Shown one piece after another: positions 2,334 through 56,745 of a DNA stretch of 64,000 nt; positions within the stretch are counted from its first letter, which is position 1; every line of letters begins with the position of its first letter. Made by a program: the position numbers and the translations under genes. Source of the DNA: Pseudomonadota bacterium. Lineage in GTDB: Bacteria; Pseudomonadota; Alphaproteobacteria; SHVZ01. The notes beneath the pieces are model-generated. The model saw nothing but the letters and a program-made list of their open reading frames with translations. It searched no databases and was not told the origin of the DNA. The stretch covers positions 63,093 through 127,092 of the forward strand of contig JACQAG010000071.1 in assembly GCA_016195085.1 (NCBI GenBank). Direction: 5' to 3'.

Positions 2334-2418
2334 TTCGTCATGCGCGGGCTTGACCCGCACATCCACGTCGTGCCGCTGTTCGATCCAAGACGTGGACCCC
2401 CGGGACAAGCCCGGGGGT
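2334..2418. repeat. Compound REP element (Bradyrhizobiaceae-type, three consecutive stem-loops), copy D1
   Basis: TTCGTCATGCGCGGGCTTGACCCGCACATCCACGTC, then CCACGTCgtgccgctgttcgatccaaGACGTGG, then ACCCCCGGGacaagCCCGGGGGT. The first module recurs at 36247..36282 (same orientation) and 37267..37302 (inverted). Confidence 0.65.
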
Positions 2419-2471
2419 GACGCAATGAGGAGCGATGCCGCCTAGGCGGAACCTGCGCAAGCCCCTAGCGG

Positions 2472-16397: not shown

Positions 16398-16819
16398 GCT
16401 CAAGCACCGCGCTGATTCGGTCACGAGTGTTCCTCTGGCCCGATTGAGATGCCGGCCGAAGCGCCGGCGGCAGTCCGCGGGGCCGCCTCCCCCATGCTTT
16501 TGCTGCTCTGCCAGGCCGGGCCTTCGCGGGCGCAACATATGCTAGCCTGCAATGCTCACCCGCTATTCCTAGTAGGTCGGACAATGCTCGACAGTTTTTG
16601 GTAAAACTCGTGCATTAATCAAGTAACCATCGGCAAGCGTCCCGATAGGCGACAACCTTGATCGGACTAAGAAAATTCATCCGTTTTTCTTGAAGAGAAT
16701 TAGTTGAACAGATATAAACCTCGAAATGGGGTGTCACCTGTTTCAGTTGTTCAGCCGGTAATAGTTGAAACCTTCCGGTGCAGCGGGGCAGTGCGGATGT
16801 TTGACGAGGTTGTAGCCTG

Positions 16820-18142
16820 ATGGGCGGTGTGGCGGGGCAGCAGAACGAAGAGCCGAAACGGTTCGTCAGGATCGACGACGACGCGCTCAAGGACGCCCTC
16901 GACTGCCATCTGCGCTTCATCAAGGGTGCGCGCGGCGGACGGCGCGCGACCCTCGCCCGGCGCGATCTTTCGAACCGCGACCTGACCGGGGTCAATCTCG
17001 CCGGCGCCGATTTGACCGGGGCCAAGCTCGCCGGCACCAAGCTTACCCGGGCCGCCCTGGCCAATGTCATCCTGTTCGGCGCCGATCTGCGCTCCATCAC
17101 CGCGCAAGGGATTGACCTGACCAAGGCGGATCTGCGCGGTGCCTGCCTCAGCGGCGCCGATCTCACCAATGCGATCCTGACCGAAGCCGACATGCGCGAG
17201 GGCGAGGTAGCTTATGTCGAGGAAGGCGACCTCACCACGAACCGGCAGAAGCTCACCCCCTCCGACATGACGGCCGCGGTGATGCGGCGGGCGGATCTGA
17301 GCCGCGCCCGCTTCTCCAAGGCCTCCGGCGCGCAGGTCGATCTGAGCGACGCGGTGCTGCGCGGCGCGCGCATGAATGGCGCCGATTTGCGCAACGCCAA
17401 TTTGACCGGCGCCATCCTGGTGCAGGCGGACCTGACCGATTCCAATTTGAGCGGCGCCACGTTGTTCGGTGCGGTTCTGACCGACTCGACCTTGACCCGC
17501 GCCGACGTGACCGGCGCCAAGCTGTTCGGCACCATCATGAACGGCGACATCAGCAAATCCGGCGCCAAGGGCACGCCGGTGAAGCCGGGAACGCCGCCGC
17601 CGAAGCCGATCGCCGAGATGATCGCGGCGCACCTGGAATGGGTGGAATCCGGCGGCGCCAAGGGGGTCCGCCTGGAGCTTCCGGGCGCCGATCTGAAGGG
17701 TGCGGATTTCCGCGACGCCAACCTCGCCGGCGCCAAGCTCACCGGGGCCGAGCTGGCGCGCGCGAATTTCAGCGGCGCCAGGCTGCTTTTTGCCGATTTC
17801 GGCTTCTGCGACATGCGCGATGCGAAGCTGCGTCGCGCCGATCTGCGCGGCGCCGATTTCAGCCGCGCGTTTGCTGGCGGCGCCGATCTGAGCGAGGCCA
17901 TCCTCGGGCTCCATGGCAAGGGTTCGAGCGATCCGGTGAGACCGACCAAGCTCACCAAGGCCCGGCTGTGGAGCGTGCGCCTCAAGGGTGCGCATCTCTG
18001 CCGCGTCGATTTGAGCGGCGTCGACCTGACCGGCGCCGACTTGACCCAGGCCGATCTGCGCGAAGCCGATCTGCGCGGCGCCACGGTGACGCCCGAGCAG
18101 CTGGCGGTGGCGATCACCACCCTCTCCGGCACCGCCGACTGA
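16820..18142 (+). CDS. Pentapeptide-repeat protein (two large repeat blocks, 440 aa)
   Basis: Dozens of A(D/N)LxG-type pentapeptides (ADLTGAKLAGTKLTRAALANVILFGADL...). Each repeat block is preceded by an HLxW/FxxSGG helix. Confidence 0.8.
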   Translation: MGGVAGQQNEEPKRFVRIDDDALKDALDCHLRFIKGARGGRRATLARRDLSNRDLTGVNLAGADLTGAKLAGTKLTRAALANVILFGADLRSITAQGIDLTKADLRGACLSGADLTNAILTEADMREGEVAYVEEGDLTTNRQKLTPSDMTAAVMRRADLSRARFSKASGAQVDLSDAVLRGARMNGADLRNANLTGAILVQADLTDSNLSGATLFGAVLTDSTLTRADVTGAKLFGTIMNGDISKSGAKGTPVKPGTPPPKPIAEMIAAHLEWVESGGAKGVRLELPGADLKGADFRDANLAGAKLTGAELARANFSGARLLFADFGFCDMRDAKLRRADLRGADFSRAFAGGADLSEAILGLHGKGSSDPVRPTKLTKARLWSVRLKGAHLCRVDLSGVDLTGADLTQADLREADLRGATVTPEQLAVAITTLSGTAD

Positions 18143-28896: not shown

Positions 28897-28998
28897 GCCC
28901 CCACCCCGACCCTCCCCCACATGCGTGGGGGAGGGAGCGAAGACGTATCCTCACTCCCTCCCTCGCCGTCCTCGGCGGGGGAGGGTAGGGGTGGGGGC
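28897..28998. repeat. Nested-palindromic GC-rich REP element, family A copy 1
   Basis: Outer arms GCCCCCACCCCGACCCTCCCCC / GGGGGAGGGTAGGGGTGGGGGC, inner arms GGGAGGGAG / CTCCCTCCC. Further copies at 46266..46371 and 56613..56722. Confidence 0.8.
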
Positions 28999-29029
28999 AT
29001 TCCGGTTGCTAGAGCCGGACAATGCGACC

Positions 29030-33494: not shown

Positions 33495-36212
33495 ATGTTC
33501 GGCGCCTTCGCCCGAAGCCTGTTCGGCAGTGCAAACGACCGCATCCTCAAACCTCTGCGCAAGGAGGTGGCGGCCATCAACGCGCTCGAGCCCGAGCTGG
33601 TGACGCTGAGCGACGACGAGCTCAAGGCGCGCACCGAGTGGCTGAAGGCTCGTTGCGCCGCCGGGGAGAGCCTGGACGAGCTTCTGGTCGACGCCTTCGC
33701 CACCGTGCGCGAAGCCGCCAAGCGCACCTTGGGCCAGCGCCATTTCGACGTGCAGCTCCTGGGCGGCATGATCTTGCACAAGGGCCGCATCGCCGAGATG
33801 AAGACCGGCGAAGGCAAGACCCTGGTGGCGACGCTCCCGGTCTATCTGAACGCGCTTGCCGGCAAGGGCGTCCACGTCGTCACCGTCAACGACTATCTCG
33901 CCCGCCGCGATGCCGAATGGATGGGCCAGATCTACAAGTTCCTGGGCCTCACCGTCGGCGTCATCGTGCACGGCATCGACGATCCCGAGCGCCAGGCCGC
34001 CTATCGCTCGGATGTGACCTACGGCACCAACAGCGAGATGGGCTTCGACTATCTCCGCGACAACATGAAGTTCCGCCTGGAGGACATGTGCCAGCGCGAG
34101 TTCTTCTTCGCCATCGTCGATGAGGTCGACTCCATCCTCATCGACGAGGCGCGCACGCCGCTCATCATCTCCGGGCGCACCGAGGATTCCTCCGAGTCCT
34201 ATCGCCGCGTCGACCGGCTGATGTCGAAGCTCGTACGCGACGACTATGAGATGGACGAGAAGCACCGCACCGCCACCTTGACCGAGGCGGGCGTGGAGAA
34301 GTTCGAGACTCTGCTGCGCGAGGCCGGCCTGTTGAATGAGGGTACGCTCTACGATCTGACCAACGTCTCGCTGGTGCATCACCTCAACCAGGCGCTGCGC
34401 GCCAACACCCTCTACCTCAAGGACCGGGACTACATCGTCAAGGACGACAAGGTGGTGCTCATCGACGAGTTCACCGGCCGCATGATGGAGGGCCGCCGCC
34501 TGTCGGAGGGCCTGCACCAGGCGATCGAGGCCAAGGAGAACGTCGAGGTGCAGAGCGAGAACCAGACGCTCGCCTCGATCACCTATCAGAACTATTTCCG
34601 CATGTATCCGAAGCTGGCCGGCATGACCGGCACGGCGATGACCGAGGCCGGCGAGTTCAGCGAGATCTACAAGCTGGACGTGGTCGAGATCCCGACCAAC
34701 ATGCCGATGATCCGCGCCGACAAGGACGACGAGGTCTATCGCACCCAGCGCGAGAAGGTGGACGCGATCGTGGCGCTCATCGAGGAGGCGCGCACCCGCA
34801 TGCAGCCGGTCCTGGTCGGCACGGTGTCGATCGAGAAGTCCGAGGCGCTGTCGGAAGTCCTGAAGGGGCGCAAGATCCCGCACCAGGTTCTGAACGCCCG
34901 CTATCACGAGCAGGAAGCCTATATCGTCGCGCAAGCCGGCCGGTCGGGCGCCGTCACCATCGCCACCAACATGGCCGGCCGCGGCACCGACATCCAGCTC
35001 GGCGGCAACTTCGACATGCGCGTGCGCCAGGAGCTGGCCGGCGTCGAAGATCCCGAGCTCAAGCAGCGCGGCATCGAGCGCATCAAACGCGAGATCGAGG
35101 CGGCGCGCGAGGTGGTGCGCCAGGCCGGCGGCCTGTACATCATCGGCACCGAGCGCCACGAGAGCCGGCGCATCGACAATCAGCTCCGCGGCCGGTCGGG
35201 CCGCCAGGGCGATCCGGGCGCCTCCAAGTTCTTCCTGTCGCTCGAAGACGACCTCATGCGCATCTTCGGCTCCGACCGCATCGACGGCATGCTGCAGAAG
35301 CTCGGCATGAAGGAAGGCGAGGCGATCGTCCATAGCTGGATCAACAAGGCGCTCCTGAAGGCGCAGCAGAAGGTCGAGGCGCGCAACTTCGAGATCCGCA
35401 AGCAGCTTCTGCGCTTCGACGACGTCATGAACGAGCAGCGCAAGGTCATCTACGAGCAGCGCCGCGAGGTCATGCGCGCGAGCGACGTCGCCGAGATGAT
35501 CGAGGGCATGCGCGAGCAGACCATCGACGATCTGATCCGGCGCTGCATTCCCGCCAACGCCTATGCCGAGAAGTGGGACGTGCATGGACTGCACACGGAG
35601 GTGCTCCGCATCTTCAACCTCGATCTGACGGTCGCCGACTGGGCGAAGGAGGAGGGCATCGCCGACGAGGCGATCCGGCACCGCCTGACCGACGCGGTCA
35701 ACCGCAAGATGGCGGAAAAGGCGGCGAACTACGGGCCGGAGCTGATGCGCTATGCGGAGAAGAGCCTGCTCCTGCAGATCCTGGATACGACCTGGAAGGA
35801 GCACCTCTTGGCGCTCGACCATCTGCGCCAGGGCATTTCGCTCAGGGCCTATGCGCAGCGCGACCCCTTGAACGAGTACAAGAGCGAGGCTTTTGTTCTG
35901 TTCGAGGAGCTGCTGTCGCGGCTGCGCGATCAGGTGACGATGACTTTGGCGCACCTCGAGCTCCGCTTCCGCGGGCCGGAGCCCGAGCCGGCGCCCTCCT
36001 CGGAGCTGGTGAGCGAGCCGGCCGGTGCGGGAGAGGGCGGGGCGCGGGGCGAACGCAGCCAGCGCTTGCGGCCGCGCGCCGTCGGCATGGCCGTCGACGC
36101 CGCCGATCCCACCACCTGGGGCAAGGTCGCGCGCAACGCGCCCTGTCCCTGCGGCTCGGGCAAGAAATACAAGCAGTGCCACGGCAAGCTGGGTGCCACG
36201 GCGGCGAACTAA
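33495..36212 (+). CDS. secA: Preprotein translocase ATPase SecA
   Basis: Walker [14 protein letters not shown]-like motor motifs, C-terminal zinc-binding [14 protein letters not shown]; 905 aa. Confidence 0.95.
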
Positions 36213-36246
36213 GGGCGGCGCGGCTAGTCTCCTCGGTGCCTTCTTA

Positions 36247-36282
36247 ACTCGTCATGCGCGGGCTTGACCCGCGCATCCACGT
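36247..36282. repeat. REP element family D, copy 2 (first stem-loop module only)
   Basis: CTCGTCATGCGCGGGCTTGACCCGCGCATCCACGTC, 9-bp inverted arms ATGCGCGGG/CCCGCGCAT; located immediately after secA. Confidence 0.65.
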
Positions 36283-36320
36283 CCTGCGCCGGTGCCGTGC
36301 GCAGTTGCATGCGCATAAGA

Positions 36321-36392
36321 TTCACCACAGAAACACGGAGAACGCGGAGAATTGATCATTCCTCTCCGTGTCCTCCGTGTCTCCGTGGTGAA
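36321..36392. repeat. REP element family E (CACGGAGA-type), copy 1
   Basis: TTCACCACAGAAACACGGAGAACGCGGAGA...TCTCCGTGGTGAA. A second copy lies at 48542..48623 (TTCACCGCAGAGACGCGGAGAGCACGGAG...TCTCCGTGGTGAA). Confidence 0.6.
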
Positions 36393-36454
36393 CTTTCTTT
36401 CTTGCTATGGCGGCGTTGATTGGAGCCCAGTGTCGGCTGAGCTAGGCTGACGTC

Positions 36455-37270
36455 GTGATCAGGAACGTGTTCGAGCCATGGCTCACCCGCTGGCACCTGA
36501 GGCCGGTTGGCGAGGCCTTCAAGACACAGCACTCCGGTAGCCACCTCATACCGGTGCTCTACGGGGGCGCTCCAGCGATGCTGAAGATCGCGCCCGGCTT
36601 GGAGGAACGCCGAGGAGCAGTGTTGATGGTCTGGTACGGCGGGAACGGCGCCGTTCGCGTGCTGGAGCTTGAGGGCGAGGCGGTGCTTCTCGAGCGAGCG
36701 ACTGGCCGGCGCAACCTCGCCGACATGGCGAGAAACGGCCAGGACGATGCTGCAACTCATATCCTCTGCGCTACGATCACGCGACTGCACGCGCCTCGGG
36801 CCACCGTACCGCCGACAACCCTCGTCCCCCTGTCCATCTGGTTCCGGGAGCTGACGCCGGCTGTCGCGCCTAACCACGAGATTCTCGCCAAGTCCGACAT
36901 GGCCGCGCGCGAGCTCCTGTCGGCACCGCGTGATGTCGTGGTGCTGCACGGCGACATTCACCACGGCAACGTCCTCGATGGCGAGGGCCGCGGCTGGCTT
37001 GCCATCGATCCCAAAGGCCTAATTGGCGAACGCGGTTTCGACTATGCCCACATCATGTGTAACCCGGATAGAGAGATGGCTACCGCGCCGGGCCGGCTAC
37101 GGCGCCAAGCGCAAATCGTGGCGCAGATCGCCGGGCTGGATCTGACCCGCCTACTCATGTGGATACTGGCTTATGCTGGCTTGTCCGCATGCTGGACGTT
37201 GGATAGTGGCGGCGATCCCGGACCGGCGCTTGCAATCGCGGAAATCGCCGTGGCCGAGTTGACCACGTGA
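36455..37270 (+). CDS. Aminoglycoside O-phosphotransferase, APH(6)/StrB-like (streptomycin kinase family)
   Basis: Catalytic motif VLHGDIHHGNVLDGEGRGWLAIDPKGLIGERGFDYA matches APH(6) (HGDLHHEN...IDP). N-terminal kinase lobe (LIPVLYGGAPAMLKIAPG). Confidence 0.7.
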   Translation: MIRNVFEPWLTRWHLRPVGEAFKTQHSGSHLIPVLYGGAPAMLKIAPGLEERRGAVLMVWYGGNGAVRVLELEGEAVLLERATGRRNLADMARNGQDDAATHILCATITRLHAPRATVPPTTLVPLSIWFRELTPAVAPNHEILAKSDMAARELLSAPRDVVVLHGDIHHGNVLDGEGRGWLAIDPKGLIGERGFDYAHIMCNPDREMATAPGRLRRQAQIVAQIAGLDLTRLLMWILAYAGLSACWTLDSGGDPGPALAIAEIAVAELTT

Positions 37271-37302
37271 CGTGGATGCGCGGGTCAAGCCCGCGCATGA
37301 CG
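37267..37302. repeat. REP element family D, copy 3 (inverted orientation)
   Basis: GACGTGGATGCGCGGGTCAAGCCCGCGCATGACGAA is the reverse complement of the D1/D2 module; overlaps the APH stop codon. Confidence 0.65.
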
Positions 37303-37430
37303 AACTATATGGATGTGGGGAACCACCGCTGCTGCGCCCGAAGATGGCGAGCACATCGCGGATGTCGGCGCCGCTGCGGTCGGCGGCAGCGCAATAGCAA
37401 ACAGGGCCGCCTCGGGCGGCCATCCCGCTG

Positions 37431-38960
37431 TTAGTCGCCGCGCGCTTCGTGTCTTCCCGGCGCACTAGGCGCTGGGTTCCCGTTCTCGCGCGAGTCGCTC
37501 GACGCGTGCGGGCCTCGTCTTGCATGCATCGGTATGAGCCAGGTTGCGATCAGGGTCAGCGCCGCGCTGATTGCAACGCCCCAAAAGCTCAGATGCAGCG
37601 ATCGATCGAACAGAGTTCGAACCGCCGGATTGCCGGCGAGCTCGGCCAGCCCGGTCGGATGGCTGAGCAGCTCATGCACGCCGATGCCGAGATCGCCGCT
37701 GCCATAATGCGTGATGCCGACGTTGAGAAGGGCGCCCAGCACCGTCGCGCCCAATGTGCTGCCGAGGCTGCGCGCGAAGATGACGGATGCGGTGGCGCTG
37801 CCGCGCCTCGACCACTCGACGCTCTCCTGCACCTGCGCGATGGTGGTGATGCTCATGATCCCCATTCCGAACCCCATGAAGAACGAGCCGATCCCGACCA
37901 TGATCGGATCGCTCTCGGGGGAGAGGAACAGAAGGAAGGTGGCGCCGATCGGAAAGAGCGCGCTGCCGGTCCGGAGCGTGCGCCGGATCCCGAAAGCGCG
38001 ATAGAGCCGGCTCGACAGCATGACCGACAGCGGCCAGCCGACCGTGAGCATGGTGATGGTGAAGCCGGCGACGATCGGCGAGCGGGCAAGCACGCCCTGA
38101 ACATAGAGGGGAATGACCGTGGTCAGGCCCAGGAGCGCCATGCTCGCCAACAGGGTGGCGACATTGACAGTGAGGATGAGCCGCCGCGTCCAGAGCTCGA
38201 TCGACACGATCGGTTCGGGCGTTTGTTTTTCGTGCAGCAGAAACCAGCCGCCGGTGAAGAGCAACAGGAGGCCCAGCGGCACCAGCATCGAGAGGCCGGC
38301 CTCGATCTCGGTCAGGATGATCAGGAGAGAGCCGGTCGCCACCGAGAAGAGCAGCGCCCCCAGATAGTCGATGCGCGCCTGTTTGTGCTCGACCCGCTCG
38401 GCCAGAAACACCGCGAAGCCGATGATCGCGGCGATGCCGATCGGGATGTTGATCCAGAAGATCCAAGCCCAGGAGACCGTGTCGACGATGATGCCGCCGG
38501 CGAGCGGGCCCAGCACGCCTGAGGTCGCCCAGACGGTCGACATGACGCCTTGCACCCGACCCCGCTCCTCGATCTTGTAGAGGTCGCCGATCACCGTCAT
38601 CGTCACCGGCTGGATCGCGCCCGCACCCAGCCCCTGCAGGAACCGGAAGCCGATGAGTGCCGTCATCGACCAGGCGTAGCCGCACAGCAGCGAGGCGATC
38701 AGAAAGACGACGATGCCGGCGATCAAGGTCGGCTTGCGGCCGAAGATGTCGGCGAGCTTCCCGTAGATGACGGTCGTCGTCGATTGCGCGAGCAGAAAGG
38801 CGGAGAACACCCAGCTGTAATGGCCGAGGCCGCCGAGCTGGCCGACGATGCCGGGCATGGCGGTGGCGACGATGGTCGCCTCGATGGCGACCATGAAGGT
38901 GGCCACCATGATCGCGGCGATGACGAACGGGCGCTTCGAGGGATGGACGGCGTTGGACAT
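37431..38960 (-). CDS. MFS transporter, DHA2 (EmrB/QacA) 14-TMS drug:H+ antiporter family
   Basis: 14 hydrophobic segments; DHA2 motifs (GKLADIFGRKP, LQGLGAG); start taken at MSNAVHPSKRPFVIAA. Confidence 0.8.
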   Translation of the reverse strand: MSNAVHPSKRPFVIAAIMVATFMVAIEATIVATAMPGIVGQLGGLGHYSWVFSAFLLAQSTTTVIYGKLADIFGRKPTLIAGIVVFLIASLLCGYAWSMTALIGFRFLQGLGAGAIQPVTMTVIGDLYKIEERGRVQGVMSTVWATSGVLGPLAGGIIVDTVSWAWIFWINIPIGIAAIIGFAVFLAERVEHKQARIDYLGALLFSVATGSLLIILTEIEAGLSMLVPLGLLLLFTGGWFLLHEKQTPEPIVSIELWTRRLILTVNVATLLASMALLGLTTVIPLYVQGVLARSPIVAGFTITMLTVGWPLSVMLSSRLYRAFGIRRTLRTGSALFPIGATFLLFLSPESDPIMVGIGSFFMGFGMGIMSITTIAQVQESVEWSRRGSATASVIFARSLGSTLGATVLGALLNVGITHYGSGDLGIGVHELLSHPTGLAELAGNPAVRTLFDRSLHLSFWGVAISAALTLIATWLIPMHARRGPHASSDSRENGNPAPSAPGRHEARGD

Positions 38961-39121
38961 CGAGCGTTCCCGTTCGGAAGGCGGAACACCGCCAGCCTGA
39001 TGAGGCTGACCCGCGGAGGCCGCAGGGAATCCGCAGAGAAACGAAATCGAGCGGCGCGTCAAGCAAAGGCTCCGCGACCTCCGCGCCTCCTCCGCGAATT
39101 CAGCGGTAAATATTCAAGAAA

Positions 39122-40061
39122 TCAGCGGCTGTTGTGGCCGAAGATGGCGAGCGCGTCGCGGATGTCGGCGACGGCGCGGTCGACGGCGGACTCGCCCTCG
39201 GCGATGACCTCGTCCGCCCGGTGGAACTCCAACAGACCGATATGGCCGACCCGGGGCGTGATCGTCACGTCCGGCGGCTCGCCCGCCAGGCGCGAGCGCG
39301 CCAGCCGGTCCTGCACGATATTGAGGGCCGAGACCATCACCCCGAACATGCTGGGCGCATCAGGATCCCGCCCGAACATGCGGGTGAGGAAATTGTCGGC
39401 ACGCCATCCCGTATCGTCTGGCCGCGTCTCCTCGAGCTCGGCCAGGAGGTCGAAGCCGGCGACAGTCGGATAGGTGCGGCCGGGCCGCCTCAGCTTGCCG
39501 ATGAGATCGGCATGCAGGTTGACGGCGATGGTCATCTGCGCGCCCATGGCGCGGCACACCGAGACCGGCACCGGGTTCACCAAGGCGCCGTCGATCAGCC
39601 AGCGGTCGCCCAGGCGCACCGGGGGAAAGACGCCGGGCATGCTGAAGGAGGCGCGCATCGCGTCCACCAGCGGGCCCTCGCGCAGCCACACCTCGTGCCC
39701 GGTCGAGAGGTCGGTGGCGATCGCGGCGAAGGGCTGCGGCAGATCGGCGATGTCGAGGCCGCCCAGATGGTCCTCCATCTCCTTCAAGAGGCGGGCGCCG
39801 CCAATCATGCCGCCGCCGCCCAGCTTGAAGTCGAGATAGGAGACCATGCGGAACTTGGTGAGGCTGCGCGCCCAGACTTCGAGCTGATCGATGCGGCCGG
39901 AGAGATGCGAGCCGCCGACCAAGGCGCCGATCGAGGTACCGCAGACGATGTCGGGCTTGATGCCGAGGCGCCCGAGGCCGCGCAGCACCCCAAGATGCGC
40001 CCAGCCGCGGGCGACCCCGCTGCCGAGGGCCAAGCCGATCAGCGGGCGCTGCATCGCCATC
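39122..40061 (-). CDS. Patatin-like phospholipase (RssA-like)
   Basis: GxGxxG (GLALGSGVARG) and GTSIG nucleophile-elbow motifs; catalytic DGA(L). Start overlaps the stop of the upstream MFS gene (TGATG). Confidence 0.8.
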
Positions 40062-42392: not shown

Positions 42393-44009
42393 TCAGCCCT
42401 TCTTCTCGATGTTCCACAGCACCAGGCGGACTGTCTCCAGCACGCCGGTGAGGTTGTTGCGGTAGGCGATGGGCGCGTAGAATTGGCCGATCGGGATGTA
42501 GGGCACGGTCTCGTAGAAGCGCGCCTGGAACCGGTCGACGATGTCCTTGCGCTGCGCGTCGGTCTGCGCCAACGGGTATTCGAGCCGGATCTTCTCCAGT
42601 GCTGCATCGCAGGGCCAGCCGAACCAGTTGGAGCCGTCGCAGGGCGTGGGCGCCGGCGTATTGGTCAAGGGCGTTCCCATGGCCAGGCCGCCGCCCCAGG
42701 TGTGAAATCCGGTCCAGGCCCGGGGATTGGCGTCGAGCGGATCCTTGAGCGCCCGGCGTGCGGTCTGGGTGCCCCAGTCCACGCTCTGCAGGTCGACGTT
42801 GATGCCGATCTCGCGCATCTTCTGCGCGGTCACGGTCGCCTGGGTGTGGGCGAGGTGGGTGTCGGCGGGATCGAGCACGACCACGCGCTCGCCCTTGTAG
42901 CCGGCCTCGGCCAGGAGCGCCTTCGCCTTGGCGATGTTGTCGGCCTTGCTGTTGGTCGCCCACGGACCGATGCCGGCCTTCGACTCGAGCGGCGTGCCGC
43001 AGACGAACACCGCCCAGCACGGCTTCTCGTATTCCGGATTGCCGATCATCGCGCCCAGATAGTCCTTCTGGTCGCCCACCATGTAGAGCAGTGCCTGGCG
43101 CACCTTCGGATTGTCGAAGGGCTTCTGCAGATGGTTGGGACGGAACACCGCTTGGGTCCCGATGCGGTCGATCACCTTGATGGTGATGTTGCCTTCCTTG
43201 CGCATCAGCGGCAGCAGATCCGGGGTGGGGATCTCGATCATGTCGACCTCGCCGCGGATCAAGGCTTGGGTCGCGGTGTTGGCGTCGGGAATGACCGGCC
43301 ACTCCACCCGGTCGACCTTGGCGAGCTTGCCGCCGGCAAACCCGTCGGCCGGCTCCTTGCGCGGCACGTAGTCGGGATTCTTGCGGTAGACCACCTTGGC
43401 GCCCGGGACCCATTCGTTCTTGACCATGATGTAGGGGCCCGATCCGGTCGGGTCCTCGATCGGCTGGTCGGCGGGCAGCATCGCCTCCTTCTCGCGGGTG
43501 ATGAACAGCGGATTCTCCGGCGTGCCCAAGGTATCGAGGACCGGGCCGAATGGCTGCGCCAGCCGGAGCTCGAAGCTCATGGTCCCGGTGGCGACGATCT
43601 CCTTGCCGAACTGCATCAGCGTCTTGCCCGTGGGGATGCGCGACGCCCAACGCTTCATCGTGGCGACCACGTCCTTGGCCTCGACCGGCGTGCCGTCGTG
43701 GAATTTGAGCCCGGGCCGGAGCGTGAACTTCCAGGTAAGACCGTCGGCGCTCTTCTCGTAGCTCTCCACCATCTGCGGCTGGTAGACGAGCTTGCCGTCG
43801 GGGGCGAACAGCACGTCATAGACCATGTAGCCATGGTTGGAGGTGATGTTGTTGGTGGTCCAAACCGTGTCGAGAACCTTAAGGTCGGCCTGGGGTACCA
43901 GGCGGAGCGTGGTCTCGGCGTGGGCGTAGGATCCGGCAAGAGTGAGGGCGAGCGGCAAGGCTGCCAGGCAAGCGGCCTTTTTGCAGCCGCCTTGGAATGG
44001 GTGCGACAT
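42393..44009 (-). CDS. ABC transporter substrate-binding protein, family 5 (DppA/OppA-like), orphan
   Basis: Signal peptide MSHPFQGGCKKAACLAALPLALTLAGSYAHA; SBP_bac_5-like body; no permease or ATPase adjacent. Confidence 0.85.
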   Translation of the reverse strand: MSHPFQGGCKKAACLAALPLALTLAGSYAHAETTLRLVPQADLKVLDTVWTTNNITSNHGYMVYDVLFAPDGKLVYQPQMVESYEKSADGLTWKFTLRPGLKFHDGTPVEAKDVVATMKRWASRIPTGKTLMQFGKEIVATGTMSFELRLAQPFGPVLDTLGTPENPLFITREKEAMLPADQPIEDPTGSGPYIMVKNEWVPGAKVVYRKNPDYVPRKEPADGFAGGKLAKVDRVEWPVIPDANTATQALIRGEVDMIEIPTPDLLPLMRKEGNITIKVIDRIGTQAVFRPNHLQKPFDNPKVRQALLYMVGDQKDYLGAMIGNPEYEKPCWAVFVCGTPLESKAGIGPWATNSKADNIAKAKALLAEAGYKGERVVVLDPADTHLAHTQATVTAQKMREIGINVDLQSVDWGTQTARRALKDPLDANPRAWTGFHTWGGGLAMGTPLTNTPAPTPCDGSNWFGWPCDAALEKIRLEYPLAQTDAQRKDIVDRFQARFYETVPYIPIGQFYAPIAYRNNLTGVLETVRLVLWNIEKKG

Positions 44010-46259: not shown

Positions 46260-46265
46260 GCAAAG

Positions 46266-46371
46266 GCCCCCACTCCACCCTCCCCCACGCTTATGCGCGG
46301 GGGAGGGAGTAGAAAGGCGCGCCTCCTACTCCCTCCCCCGCCGTCAGGCGGGGGAGGGCCGGGGCGGGGGC
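46266..46371. repeat. Nested-palindromic REP element, family A copy 2
   Basis: GCCCCCACTCCACCCTCCCCC...GGGGGAGGGAGtagaaaggcgcgcctcctaCTCCCTCCCCC...GGGGGAGGGCCGGGGCGGGGGC. Confidence 0.8.
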
Positions 46372-46393
46372 AATCGGCGTTCGCGAGTCTCGG

Positions 46394-49515: not shown

Positions 49516-50432
49516 ATCGAAGCGACCGCGGCGATGAACAGGAACATGAGCACGGCCAAGGCGCTGCCGCGGCCGAAATCCTGCAGGCCCGAGCTCACCG
49601 CGCCGAAGGCGGTGCGATAGAAGTAGAGGCCGAGCACGTCGGTCGCCCCGCCCGGCGAGCCGTCGAGCCCGGCCATGATGTAGGGGAGCTCGAACCAGTT
49701 GAAGGAGCCGATGAACAACAGCACGAAGGCGATGGTGGCGCTGGGGGCGACCAAGGGCCAGATCACGCGCCGCATCAGGGCCAGATCACCCGCACCGTCG
49801 AGGCGTGCCGCCTCCAGGACCTCGCGCGGAATGCGCTGCATGCCGGCCAGGAACACCAGTGCCGGGAATCCGACCCAGTGCCAGGTGTTGACCGCGATCA
49901 AGCTCGCCAACGCCGTTTGCGGTTGGCCCAGCCAGGGCTGCGCCCAGCCCGCGAGCCCGATCGCGATCAGCGCCTGATTGACCGCCCCGAAGATGGGATT
50001 CAAGAAGAGCTTCCACAGGAAGCCGACGATCACCGTGGAAAGCACCACCGGCAGGAACACCGCCACCTGATGGAACCGGTGGCCGGGCATGCCCTTCAAG
50101 AGGGCGAAGCCGATGAGGAAGGCGAGCCCGTTCTGCACCACCATGAGCGAGAGAAACACCACGACATTGTGGGTGAAGGCCCGGTAGGTCCAGGAGCTGA
50201 ACGGCTCCTGGAGCAGCACCTGCTTGAAGTTGCCGAGCCCGGCGAAGCCGCCGCGCGCCAGCCCGTTCCAGCTATAGAGACTGTAGAGAAACGAGCTCGC
50301 CAGCGGATAGACCGCGAACACCAGCATGAACAGGACGGGCGGCCCGATGAGGAAGACGATCCAGAATACCCGATTGAGATCCGCGCCGAACGTCTTGCAG
50401 CGGCGGGCCGGCGCCGCTCGCTCGCCCCTCAC
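49476..50432 (-). CDS. Sugar ABC transporter permease (MalF-like)
   Basis: 6 TMS; EAA motif (LDGAGDLALMRRVIWPLVAP). Confidence 0.8.
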   Translation of the reverse strand: MRGERAAPARRCKTFGADLNRVFWIVFLIGPPVLFMLVFAVYPLASSFLYSLYSWNGLARGGFAGLGNFKQVLLQEPFSSWTYRAFTHNVVVFLSLMVVQNGLAFLIGFALLKGMPGHRFHQVAVFLPVVLSTVIVGFLWKLFLNPIFGAVNQALIAIGLAGWAQPWLGQPQTALASLIAVNTWHWVGFPALVFLAGMQRIPREVLEAARLDGAGDLALMRRVIWPLVAPSATIAFVLLFIGSFNWFELPYIMAGLDGSPGGATDVLGLYFYRTAFGAVSSGLQDFGRGSALAVLMFLFIAAVASIWVRMLRRREIEI

Positions 50433-50518
50433 CCTAACCCTCTCCCCAAGGGAGAGGGGACACGATGAATGGCGCTCCTACTCCCTCTCCCTTGGGGAGA
50501 GGGTCGGGGTGAGGGGCG
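50423..50518. repeat. Nested-palindromic REP element, family C (long form)
   Basis: CGCCCCTCACCCTAACCCTCTCCCCAAGGGAGAGGGGA...CTCCCTCTCCCTTGGGGAGAGGGTCGGGGTGAGGGGCG. Confidence 0.75.
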
Positions 50519-51865: not shown

Positions 51866-53452
51866 TCAGCTCTTCTCCATGTTCCAGTAGGCGAGCACGG
51901 CGCTCTTCAAGACGCCGGTCACTTCCTTGCGCCAGGCGAACAGCAGCTGAAACTGGCCCAGAAGCGTGTAGGGCTGCTGCTCGATCAAGCGCCGGTGATA
52001 GGTCTCCATCAACGCCTTGCGCTGGCCTTCGTCGGTCGCGCGGATTACCTGGTCGCGGAGCTTGGTCGCGGTCTCATCGCAGGGCCAGCCGACCCAGTTC
52101 TTGCGGTCGCAGCTCATATTGGCCGCCGTGTTGGTGACCGGGTGGAAGTAGCTGGTGCCGCTGGCGCGGCTGGCGAACATGTTCCAGCCGCCCTTATCGG
52201 GCGGGTCCATTTTGGCGATGCGGCCCACCACCGTGCCCCAGTCGCTCAGCTGCATATCGACATTGACGCCGATCTCGCGGAGCTGGGCCACGGCCACCTG
52301 CGCCAGATCGCCGATCGGCTTGATCTCGGCGGTGGTGGTCAAGACCAGCTTTTCACCCTTGTAGCCGGCATCGGCCATGAGCTGCTTCGCCTTGACGCGG
52401 TCGAGCTTGCGGATCTCTTCCGCGCCGGCTTCGGTGCCGAAGGGCGTATCGCAGATATACATGGCGTAGCACACCTTCCACCAGCGCTCATCCCCGCTGG
52501 CGGCGCGCTGGAAATCGCGCTGGTCGAAGAGATAGGCCAAGGCCAGCCGCGCCCGATAGTCGTTGAAGGGCGGGAAGAGCGTGTTGGTCCTGAGGAAGCC
52601 GATATTGCCGAAAGGCGTCAGGGGTGCGACCACCACGTCCTTGCTCTTCTCGATGATCGGCACTTGATCATTGGGTGGCGAATCCCAGAAATCGACCTCG
52701 CCGCGGGTCAAGGCCGCGGCGGCCGTGCCGGTATCGGGGATGATATTCCACTCCACCCGGTCGACCTTGACCACCTTGCCGCCGGCCATCCCGTTCGGCG
52801 GCTCGTTGCGGGGCACATAGTCCTTGTTCTTGTCGAAGACGAGCTTGACGCCCGGCTGCCACTCCGCCCGGTTGAACTTGAACGGCCCCGAGCCGATGGT
52901 CTCGGTGATCGCCGTGAAGGCGTCGGTCGCCGCCTCCTTCTCCCGGTAGATCGTCGGGATCTGCGGACCGTCGGAGCCGAGCGTGAATTCGACGAAGCCA
53001 TAGGGCTGTTTCAAGATGACGGTGAAGCTGTCCTCGTCCACGGCCTCCATCGCCGCGGTGAACTCCATCAGCTTCTGGCCCATGGCATCGCGGCTGGCCC
53101 AGCGCTTGATCGAGGGCACCACGTCCTTGGACGTGACCTTGGTGCCGTCATGCCATTTGAGGCCGGGCCGGAGCTTGAAGGTGTATTTGAGCCCGTCGGC
53201 CGACACGGTGTAGTCGCCCACCATCATCGGCTTCGCCTGCAGCTTCTCGTCCCAGGCGAAGAGCTGGTCGTAGACCATGAGCCCATAGATCTTGGTGATC
53301 TGGATCGAGCCCGTGTGGTTGTCGAGGACCTTGAGGTCGGCATGGGGTACGGCGCGCAGCACCTTTTGCTGAGCCAAGGCCGGCAAGCCGACAGTGGCGC
53401 CGGCGATGGCAACGATGGTGCCGAGGAGTCGCAGGTTCGAGAGAGTTCGCAT
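51866..53452 (-). CDS. ABC transporter substrate-binding protein, family 5, orphan
   Basis: AAGGAG SD before the ATG at 53452; signal peptide MRTLSNLRLLGTIVAIAGATVGLPALA. Confidence 0.85.
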   Translation of the reverse strand: MRTLSNLRLLGTIVAIAGATVGLPALAQQKVLRAVPHADLKVLDNHTGSIQITKIYGLMVYDQLFAWDEKLQAKPMMVGDYTVSADGLKYTFKLRPGLKWHDGTKVTSKDVVPSIKRWASRDAMGQKLMEFTAAMEAVDEDSFTVILKQPYGFVEFTLGSDGPQIPTIYREKEAATDAFTAITETIGSGPFKFNRAEWQPGVKLVFDKNKDYVPRNEPPNGMAGGKVVKVDRVEWNIIPDTGTAAAALTRGEVDFWDSPPNDQVPIIEKSKDVVVAPLTPFGNIGFLRTNTLFPPFNDYRARLALAYLFDQRDFQRAASGDERWWKVCYAMYICDTPFGTEAGAEEIRKLDRVKAKQLMADAGYKGEKLVLTTTAEIKPIGDLAQVAVAQLREIGVNVDMQLSDWGTVVGRIAKMDPPDKGGWNMFASRASGTSYFHPVTNTAANMSCDRKNWVGWPCDETATKLRDQVIRATDEGQRKALMETYHRRLIEQQPYTLLGQFQLLFAWRKEVTGVLKSAVLAYWNMEKS

Positions 53453-56608: not shown

Positions 56609-56612
56609 GAGT

Positions 56613-56722
56613 GCCCCCACCCCGACCCTCCCCCGCCTGACGGCGAGGGAGGGAGTAAGACGCGCCCTTCGCTGATACTCCCTCCCCCGCGCGCAAGCGT
56701 GGGGGAGGGTCGGGGTGGGGGC
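56613..56722. repeat. Nested-palindromic REP element, family A copy 3
   Basis: GCCCCCACCCCGACCCTCCCCC...GAGGGAGGGAG...CTCCCTCCCCC...GGGGGAGGGTCGGGGTGGGGGC. Outer arms identical to copy A1. Confidence 0.8.
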
Positions 56723-56745
56723 ATTCGACTGCGTGGAACGGAGGA

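Follow-up and report, generated by a model that had tools for sequence, protein, structure and literature searches.

REPs with a CGTC terminal tag, an 8-9-bp stem starting with AT, a 4-5-nt loop, and a short CCA tail occur chiefly in Alphaproteobacteria, mostly as inverted dimers with spacers of 20-100 bp downstream of ORFs (Di Nocera et al. 2013, PMC3733652). They lie mostly between unidirectional or convergent genes, frequently touch coding regions, and no dedicated RAYT or other transposase was associated with them in any genome surveyed (PMC3733652). REPINs, i.e. two inverted REPs able to fold as one hairpin (Bertels & Rainey 2011), have short spacers, consist of GTAG-type REPs, and are served by RAYTs (PMC3116915). 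REPs can also act as landing sites, e.g. for ISPpu9 in P. putida, where the insertion ends up bracketed by REP sequence (PMC8450116). The kinases APH(6)-Id (StrB, RSF1010/Tn5393) and APH(6)-Ic (Tn5 str) are plasmid- or transposon-borne, and the orphan chromosomal strB of Agrobacterium fabrum confers streptomycin resistance (PMC10521367).

The locus analysed here lies in a window of 64,000 nucleotides (the whole stretch of DNA under study) from a deep-branching uncultured alphaproteobacterium and holds an APH(6)-family kinase gene between two inverted REPs. It resembles REPINs in having two inverted REPs able to fold as one hairpin, but these are 985 nt apart and carry the CGTC tag, for which no RAYT is known. 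With REPs serving as landing sites it would also resemble the ISPpu9 insertions, although the enclosed DNA, unlike ISPpu9, encodes no self-mobility function such as a transposase or an intron RNA. We regard the locus as largely ordinary, with REPs that look like common gene-end repeats of the neighbouring genes and not like transposon ends. Its features, together with a reference dimer from the same window, are as follows:

2335-2423, no strand: reference REP dimer, tails inward, with REPs at 2335-2369 (+) and 2389-2423 (-) and a 19-nt spacer
33495-36212, plus strand: secA, last gene of a conserved rotamase-secA block; synteny with relatives stops at its 3' end
36249-36283, plus strand: left CGTC-tagged REP, with T-CGTC tag, 9-bp stem ATGCGCGGG, loop CTTGA, and CCA tail, then CGTC
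36317-36396, no strand: long near-perfect hairpin followed by a T-rich tract; stem of ~33 bp, -45.8 kcal/mol, z -9
36455-37270, plus strand: APH(6)-family (PF04655) kinase gene with intact catalytic loop HGDIHHGN, IDPK, and Lys44
37269-37303, minus strand: right CGTC-tagged REP, exact reverse complement of 36249-36283
37323-37387, minus strand: patatin 3' remnant, 85% identical to the 3'-terminal ~65 nt of the patatin gene (39122-39187)

The repeats flanking the kinase are CGTC-tagged REPs, which bears out their initial annotation as REPs. All three copies, including the one at 2335-2369 with 1 mismatch, have the architecture T-CGTC-ATGCGCGGG-CTTGA-CCCGCGCAT-CCA, i.e. the tag, 9-bp stem starting with AT, 5-nt loop, and CCA tail that define the class (PMC3733652). 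A literature search with the REP core sequence returned no match. The two arms are 100% complementary over 35 nt with a gap of 985 nt between them, and none of 100 shuffles gave any match. Because 18 of the 35 nt in each arm form its own palindromic stem, the loop and the asymmetry of the flanks alone give an arm its orientation. The left REP points its tag toward the secA stop, 37 nt off, and its tail toward the kinase. The tail of the right REP overlaps the kinase TGA (37268-37270) by 2 nt, an overlap that had been recognised from the start, and its tag points toward the stop position of the patatin remnant, 19 nt off. Both REPs lack individual partners, and both turn their tails to the kinase, which occupies the place of a dimer spacer. 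The pair differs from usual CGTC REP dimers in its 985-nt distance, the enclosed gene, and its identical stems. By chance, such a bracket is uncommon but not remarkable: rough, post-hoc estimates that two of three REP-bearing intergenic regions flank one gene as an inverted pair are 0.06-0.10, or 0.03-0.05 for the tails-inward orientation.

The habits of this family were derived from a census of 227 REPs on 120 metagenome contigs that carry the same 22-mer and were picked for one stem type; the exact 22-mer is present on >120 metagenome contigs. Strictly scored dimers comprised 80 tails-inward pairs with spacers of 8-82 nt (median 31), 5 tags-inward pairs, and 1 direct pair, and 76% of the REPs had an inverted hairpin partner within 160 nt (~24% had none). 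For 81 REPs the tag end had a gene 3' end within 60 nt, vs 10 REPs for the tail end, with the same bias among singlets (13 vs 2). The median distance between REP and gene stop was 25 nt, tag end first, and no gene 3' end in the census lay within 5 nt of a REP tail. Since the tag end in this family faces the preceding gene end, the two REPs belong to secA and the patatin remnant and not to the kinase. On unrelated metagenome contigs, 71 copies share the tag-to-tail 30-mer exactly, so the identity of the 35-nt arms is no sign of recent duplication. Stems differed within all 80 census dimers and within the window's own dimer, whereas those of the kinase-flanking pair are identical; this bias is uncertain, given that the census contigs had been chosen by a single stem type. 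A permissive regular-expression search for degenerate partners gave 75% false positives, and its result was dropped. On the metagenome contigs the REPs are dispersed, intergenic, and mostly in inverted dimers after ORFs, as is usual for the class; the source genome contributed four copies, three of the same subtype. The reference dimer (2335-2423) is flanked by convergent genes whose stops are 45 and 48 nt away, and it folds into one long hairpin (-54.8 kcal/mol). Wider pairs exist as well: two of the 25 distant neighbouring pairs in the census were gene-sized and tails-inward. One (locus L113) is split by 794 nt containing a group II intron (RF00029), similar to a REP-targeted insertion, and the other (locus L183) by 1292 nt containing a pentapeptide-repeat gene.

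The DNA on either side of the kinase carries further marks. The hairpin at 36317-36396 had been assigned to a separate REP family E. The hairpin itself is real, but the family is not: it is single-copy in the window and the 209 loci examined, Rfam returned only spurious matches to miRNA-precursor hairpins, and we rejected the REP-family reading. The hairpin may act as a terminator or attenuator in the interval from secA to the kinase. A scan of 36150-37480 yielded no sigma-70-like promoter, and the sole terminator-like site in it belongs to MFS1. On the other side, the patatin remnant is decayed (stop changed to CCA, 1-nt indel) and marks a former minus-strand gene end beside the right REP.

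The enclosed gene encodes an intact, full-length APH(6)-family small-molecule kinase, as proposed in the initial annotation. The ORF has 271 aa with a GTG start (the NCBI call has 267 aa and begins at the alternative GTG 36467). Residues 12-252 match the complete Pfam profile APH_6_hur (PF04655, positions 1-252 of 252; E 3.7e-76) with 256.2 bits vs a gathering cut-off of 27. In a 43-sequence alignment the kinase retains 42 of 42 invariant columns, including K44, H165-G-D-x-H-H-x-N172, and D185-P-K187, and a C-terminus of normal length. The HGDIHHGNVL motif corresponds to residues 165-174 and IDPKG to 184-188, while K44, H165/G166/D167/H169/H170/N172, and D185/P186 are invariant across the kinase, APH(6)-Id, and three homologues. 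The kinase has PF04655, the LHGDxHHxN loop, GWLxIDP, and the ATP-binding lysine in common with both APH(6)-Id and APH(6)-Ic. The AlphaFold model (pLDDT 95.1, pTM 0.91) has the bilobal APH/choline-kinase fold, and the best PDB matches in Foldseek were APH(3')-IIb, APH(4)-Ia, and APH(3')-VIII (probability 1.0, TM 0.55-0.71). By sequence, no PDB relatives were found, and the only matches in the profile search were weak ones to maltokinase and fructosamine kinase. Among NCBIfam models, the top matches are exclusively APH(6) types (APH(6)-Ic-type and APH(6)-I models; E 1e-64 to 1e-80). However, the kinase stays below all curated cut-offs (NF033614, 268.8 vs 460; NF012171, 236.3 vs 325; NF000011, 232.4 vs 500), which leaves streptomycin specificity putative.

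Judging by homology, from which we infer its substrate, the kinase would phosphorylate a streptomycin-like aminocyclitol at a hydroxyl, in characterised members the 6-OH of streptidine, with the gamma-phosphate from ATP, and would confer modest intrinsic streptomycin tolerance. Action on streptomycin is plausible given the uniformly APH(6)-type NCBIfam matches and the demonstrated activity of the chromosomal orphan strB of A. fabrum (PMC10521367). That its physiological substrate is another hydroxylated small molecule, with no useful resistance, is nevertheless a real possibility: the same Pfam family includes hydroxyurea kinase, identity to APH(6)-Id is just 34-35%, the curated cut-offs are missed, choline and homoserine kinases match the fold equally well, and there is no APH(6) structure with which to compare binding pockets. 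This question is independent of the history of the REPs. The gene is chromosomal, unlike APH(6)-Id and APH(6)-Ic, and has no strA partner among the annotated neighbours within ±10 kb. Its closest counterpart in this respect is strB (Atu1243) of A. fabrum C58, likewise an alphaproteobacterial, chromosomal, strA-less APH(6)-family gene. Both are variable genes within surroundings that are otherwise conserved, and neither has an integrase, transposase, or tRNA gene close by (PMC10521367). Atu1243 has typical codon usage and demonstrated streptomycin activity (PMC10521367), whereas the kinase is the strongest codon-usage outlier of the window and its activity is a candidate one.

The kinase gene probably came from another organism. 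Its GC3 is the lowest of the 49 genes in the window (0.764 vs 0.866 ± 0.034), and it has the worst codon-usage fit of all 49 (z -3.7); the codon usage of MFS1 and MFS2 is typical. The anomaly could instead mean low expression of the kinase. The closest homologues, with 57-66% identity, come from Caulobacteraceae, Gemmatimonadaceae, Longimicrobium, and Thermomicrobiales, whereas named SecA relatives (≤75% identity) are nearly all Alphaproteobacteria. This agrees with the patchy distribution suggested initially. Neither a kinase with >66% identity nor a second copy of the REP-kinase-REP unit was found among 5.8 billion proteins, and the gene is carried only by the source MAG and by short Logan contigs of identical sequence. 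The homologue loci examined represent five different housekeeping contexts, none with REPs. At one of them (L089) the kinase is convergent with a patatin gene, but this patatin is unrelated (E 0.17), and we rejected an ancestral kinase-patatin adjacency as coincidence. Across 80 secA loci of GTDB species representatives, only the upstream rotamase-secA pair is conserved; downstream of secA none of them shares a gene with the source locus, and kinase, MFS1, patatin, and MFS2 were found within 10 kb of secA in none of them. The nearest SecA is 74-75% identical, both in these 80 loci and among the 5.8 billion proteins, and the SecA of the source genome is carried by its source contig only. Transposase and integrase domains are absent from the 17 genes within ±10 kb of the kinase, in line with the earlier remark that no transposase is nearby. 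An integron cassette was also considered and rejected, given that the hairpins are inverted and not co-oriented and that no integrase is near.

For the history of the bracket, we tentatively put first that a foreign kinase segment landed inside a resident REP dimer and separated its partners. The left REP would be the ordinary 3'-end REP of secA and the right REP the 3'-end REP of the minus-strand patatin gene, now reduced to the 65-nt remnant. We infer the order of events and the mechanism of insertion as follows: a single tails-inward dimer may have occupied a convergent secA/patatin spacer, comparable to the reference dimer (2335-2423); ~985 bp of foreign DNA (hairpin and kinase) would then have inserted between the partners; and a later insertion of MFS1 next door would have duplicated the patatin 3' end. 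This is consistent with the tags lying at the ends of the outer genes (37 nt from secA, 19 nt from the patatin remnant) as is the habit in the census, with both REPs being unpartnered in a family where most are paired, with the outlying codon usage of the kinase, and with the precedents of pairs split by an intron and by a pentapeptide-repeat gene. Against it stand the identical stems and the exact abutment of the kinase stop on the REP tail, which requires a lucky junction or later trimming. Moreover, the sample holds just four REPs of the source genome, the nearest SecA is so distant (75%) that no empty site or close relative shows the order, and the codon-usage anomaly has the alternative explanation of low expression.

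It is also quite possible that the REPs accumulated independently, i.e. that the kinase, acquired or old, already lay between secA and patatin when two solitary REPs were deposited separately. One would then sit after secA and the other in the short convergent kinase/patatin spacer, with the bracket as a by-product. CGTC REPs favour sites downstream of ORFs and often touch coding regions (PMC3733652; census), ~24% of the family's REPs lack a partner, and in a convergent spacer of ~55 nt a tag-first REP after patatin must abut the kinase stop. Identical stems would be expected if this is the main subtype of the genome (3/4 copies), and the chance estimates (0.03-0.10) are not extreme. On the other hand, accumulation needs two separate insertions, both of the minority solitary form (~0.24 squared) and in the right orientation, and it makes no use of the finding that outlying codon usage is confined to the enclosed gene.

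A broader idea, which we consider improbable, is that foreign DNA lands preferentially in CGTC REP dimers, or that these are long-spacer REPINs whose cargo is moved in trans. A resident REP pair could in that case capture, and perhaps re-export, single genes such as the kinase. Including the kinase locus, three tails-inward pairs with 0.8-1.3 kb between partners have been seen.

We think it very unlikely that the REP(+)-hairpin-kinase-REP(-) unit is itself mobile cargo, i.e. a non-autonomous REPIN with a 1-kb spacer, possibly mobilised in trans by a transposase, of the tyrosine (RAYT/IS200-like) or another type, that reads the outward CGTC tags. The perfect 35-nt inverted repeats with outermost tags do have the geometry of normal dimers, the kinase is compositionally foreign, and its family is patchy across phyla. 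No direct repeat flanks the unit (outer flanks ...CTTCTTAAC and ACTATATGG...), a result that is not decisive because IS200/IS605-type transposition makes no target duplication. However, a cognate transposase is lacking both for CGTC REPs in the surveyed genomes (PMC3733652) and within 10 kb of the kinase, and the 985 nt between the arms far exceed the 8-82 nt in the 80 family dimers. Further, the outer genes account for the REP orientation, the REP identity is family-wide, no second copy or close kinase is present in the searched proteins, homologues lie in REP-free and varied contexts, and gene-sized tails-inward pairs are rare (2/25). The initial view of the REPs as terminal inverted repeats of a mobilisable unit is not supported. 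Least probable of all is a recombinational cassette exchange, in which an incoming REP-gene-REP replaced the spacer of a resident dimer by double crossover in the 35-nt REPs: the REP sequence, common to many soil Alphaproteobacteria, offers portable homology and the kinase is compositionally foreign, but 35 nt lies at the lower limit for RecA-dependent exchange, donor genes usually lie between whole dimers and would leave two dimers instead of two solitary REPs, and no donor-like locus was found in the proteins and loci searched.

The direct importance of the locus is modest: it extends the environmental reservoir of chromosomal, strA-less APH(6)-family genes by a single member, in this case from a deep-branching uncultured alphaproteobacterium. 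It also calls for caution, in that identical inverted REPs around a gene are not to be taken for transposon ends, and the direction of the CGTC tag relative to gene ends tells which gene each REP of this class belongs to. Should foreign genes turn out to insert repeatedly into REP dimers, the picture of how accessory genes become established in bacterial chromosomes would gain a small but useful detail.

The kinase gene downstream of secA is bracketed by a perfect 35-nt inverted repeat whose right arm shares 2 nt with the TGA stop codon (37268-37270). This bears out the initial annotation, which had placed inverted REP copies on either side of the gene and let the downstream one overlap its stop. 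The elements concerned are:

36455-37270 (+), kinase ORF, 271 aa, GTG start (ORF listing and direct reading)
36249-36283 (+), left REP
37269-37303 (-), right REP
2335-2369, third copy of the repeat, one mismatch
36317-36396, 'family-E' hairpin upstream of the kinase, stem ~33 bp, -45.8 kcal/mol, z -9
28897-29002, 46262-46375, 50423-50518 and 56609-56725, G/C-rich hairpin repeats in intergenic regions of the window

The repeat reads T-CGTC-ATGCGCGGG-CTTGA-CCCGCGCAT-CCA-CGTC, with a CGTC tag, a 9-bp stem beginning with AT, a 5-nt loop and a CCA tail. Judged by sequence, the copies are CGTC-tagged REPs matching the superfamily definition of Di Nocera et al. (PMC3733652), and naming the flanking elements REPs was therefore right. 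Such REPs are most common in Alphaproteobacteria, usually form inverted dimers with spacers of 20-100 bp, lie chiefly 3' of ORFs where the neighbouring genes are unidirectional or convergent, have no dedicated transposase, and can be parted by DNA inserted between dimer partners (PMC3733652). The third copy, where chance would predict none, pairs across a 19-nt spacer with a REP of different stem (2389-2423); this dimer (2335-2423) separates a convergent gene pair, with 45 and 48 nt to the respective stops, and folds as one long hairpin. The element called a 'family-E' REP is a real hairpin but not a demonstrated repeat family, since no further copy was found in the window or in the loci fetched by then. 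A second, unrelated G/C-rich hairpin repeat family (CCCCCACCCCGACCCTCCCCC...GGGGGAGGG) occupies several intergenic regions, and REP-like elements of at least two families abound in the source genome.

The NCBI annotation of the source record starts the kinase 4 codons downstream (267 aa). Both motifs ascribed to it earlier, HGDIHHGNVL and IDPKG, are present in the translated ORF, and the APH(6)/StrB assignment is correct: the protein matches APH_6_hur (PF04655) over its full length (E 3.7e-76) and the general APH family of Pfam marginally, and every one of its top NCBIfam models is of an APH(6) type (E 1e-64 to 1e-80), with scores under the curated cut-off of every APH(6) model (268.8 vs 460; 236.3 vs 325). 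None of the 42 positions invariant across a 43-sequence alignment is altered in the kinase. As is usual in the alignment, the protein stops 1-4 residues past the conserved AEL, and thus has not been truncated by the REP. Identity to APH(6)-Id (StrB) is 34-35%, with the ATP-binding lysine, catalytic loop and IDP motif in common, and rises to 50-56% for unnamed 'APH(6) family putative' genes of rhizobial megaplasmids and some enterobacterial plasmids. No APH(6) structure was detectable by sequence in the PDB. The best structural matches of the AlphaFold model (pLDDT 95.1, pTM 0.91) are the aminoglycoside kinases APH(3')-IIb, APH(4)-Ia (TM up to 0.71) and APH(3')-VIII, followed by choline and homoserine kinases; these matches of the predicted structure confirm the fold, and streptomycin remains the putative substrate. 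As a precedent for function, the nearest case is strB of Agrobacterium fabrum, a chromosomal orphan gene that confers streptomycin resistance. It is a variable member of a conserved region and bears no marks of mobile elements (PMC10521367).

Among 49 window genes the kinase is the strongest codon-usage outlier (z -3.7) and has the lowest GC3 (0.764 vs 0.866 +/- 0.034); codon usage is typical in the neighbouring MFS1 and MFS2. An identical protein is encoded on the 200.6-kb NCBI contig JACOSK010000095.1 of MAG GCA_016178915.1, labelled 'Proteobacteria bacterium', and on two ~0.9-kb Logan contigs (L001 and L002). Aligned to window positions 36365-37302, the latter begin halfway through the long hairpin and stop at the final bases of the right REP, ends that fit breaks of the assembly graph at a palindrome and at a multi-copy repeat. 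The next homologues, 57-66% identical, span several phyla (Caulobacteraceae, Gemmatimonadaceae, Longimicrobium, Thermomicrobiales), while named matches to SecA are almost only alphaproteobacterial or Rhodospirillales-like, at 75% identity or less. Of five kinase homologues whose surroundings were viewed, each has a different housekeeping neighbourhood and two overlap the gene upstream; no REPs were found at these five loci. Across 80 secA loci of relatives the divergent rotamase-secA pair was the only conserved arrangement, and no common gene was found 3' of secA. A contig labelled 'Candidatus Udaeobacter sp.' (L010, DATNJA010000066.1) encodes a SecA 68% identical to that of the window and has a dimer of CGTC REPs 1.1 kb 3' of the secA gene, for which reasons it may be a mis-binned alphaproteobacterial contig.

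A 22-mer common to the three window copies matched at least 120 contigs in JGI metagenomes. Among the matches listed, to which all census figures refer, contig GC ranged from 48 to 72%, 227 REPs were found, and the tag-to-tail 30-mer was identical in at least 71 copies; arm identity is therefore a family property and no sign of recent duplication. Dimers with tails facing each other numbered 80 (spacers 8-82 nt, median 31), against 5 with tags inward and 1 direct pair, and 76% of REPs had a hairpin partner within 160 nt (false-positive rate of the detector 3.9%). In 81 REPs a gene 3' end lay at most 60 nt outward of the tag (median 25 nt), and in only 10 it lay within 60 nt of the tail end, never within 5 nt of a tail; solitary REPs showed the same bias (13 vs 2). 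Two further tails-inward pairs carry long inserts. In L113 (135-984) REPs of the same family lie 794 nt apart around a group II intron domain V/VI match (RF00029, 846-924, 50 bits), an example of mobile DNA between dimer partners. In L183 (348-1695) they lie 1292 nt apart around a pentapeptide-repeat ORF (401-1471, -), whose stop, 26 nt from a REP tail, mirrors the kinase locus.

At the kinase, the tag of the left REP follows the secA stop by 37 nt. That of the right REP is 19 nt away from the position of the stop in a decayed copy (65 nt, 85% identical) of the patatin 3' end, the patatin gene itself now lying 1.8 kb further on. Both tails point towards the kinase and neither REP has a partner of its own, so that kinase and hairpin fill the place of a dimer spacer. 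The REPs are probably resident bystanders belonging to the neighbouring gene ends. The history requiring the fewest events, which we favour tentatively and short of calling it probable, is that one REP dimer occupied the secA/patatin convergent spacer and a foreign ~985-bp segment would have inserted between its partners. Against it, the kinase-flanking stems are identical while stems differ in all 80 census dimers, a comparison limited by selection of the census on one stem type; the kinase stop exactly abuts a REP tail; and the four REPs seen of the source genome are few. Alternatively, two solitary REPs might have been deposited once the kinase was already in place, which we consider possible but rather doubtful. 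The initial reading of the REPs as terminal inverted repeats of a mobile unit is unsupported and highly improbable: direct reading of the flanks revealed no target duplication, no transposase lies within 10 kb (the initial annotation likewise noted none) or is known for the class (PMC3733652), no second copy was found, and tails-inward pairs spaced widely enough for a gene show no enrichment, accounting for 2 of 25 distant neighbouring pairs among the matches listed. By a rough estimate, the probability that one gene would by chance be flanked, in inverted orientation, by two out of three REP-bearing spacers is 0.03-0.10. Exchange mediated by REP homology seems about equally improbable.

Further along, the decayed copy of the last ~65 nt of the patatin gene (37323-37387) and the intact patatin 3' end (39122-39187), 1800 nt apart, form direct repeats around the MFS1 transporter gene (37431-39062, -). 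They look like the scar of an MFS1 insertion, e.g. through integration by a single crossover at the 3' end of patatin, and flag the stretch beyond secA as a hot spot of rearrangement. Elsewhere, a gene with 15-nt-periodic repeats of pentapeptide-repeat type (16805-18142) is the source of the largest direct-repeat families of the window, and stretches 71-77% identical in two solute-binding-protein genes ~9.45 kb apart (42600-43750 and 52070-53200) suggest a duplicated transporter module.

That REP dimers serve single genes as landing pads or cargo carriers appears very unlikely. The kinase is an environmental APH(6)-family gene and its flanking repeats are CGTC REPs, both of kinds already known.
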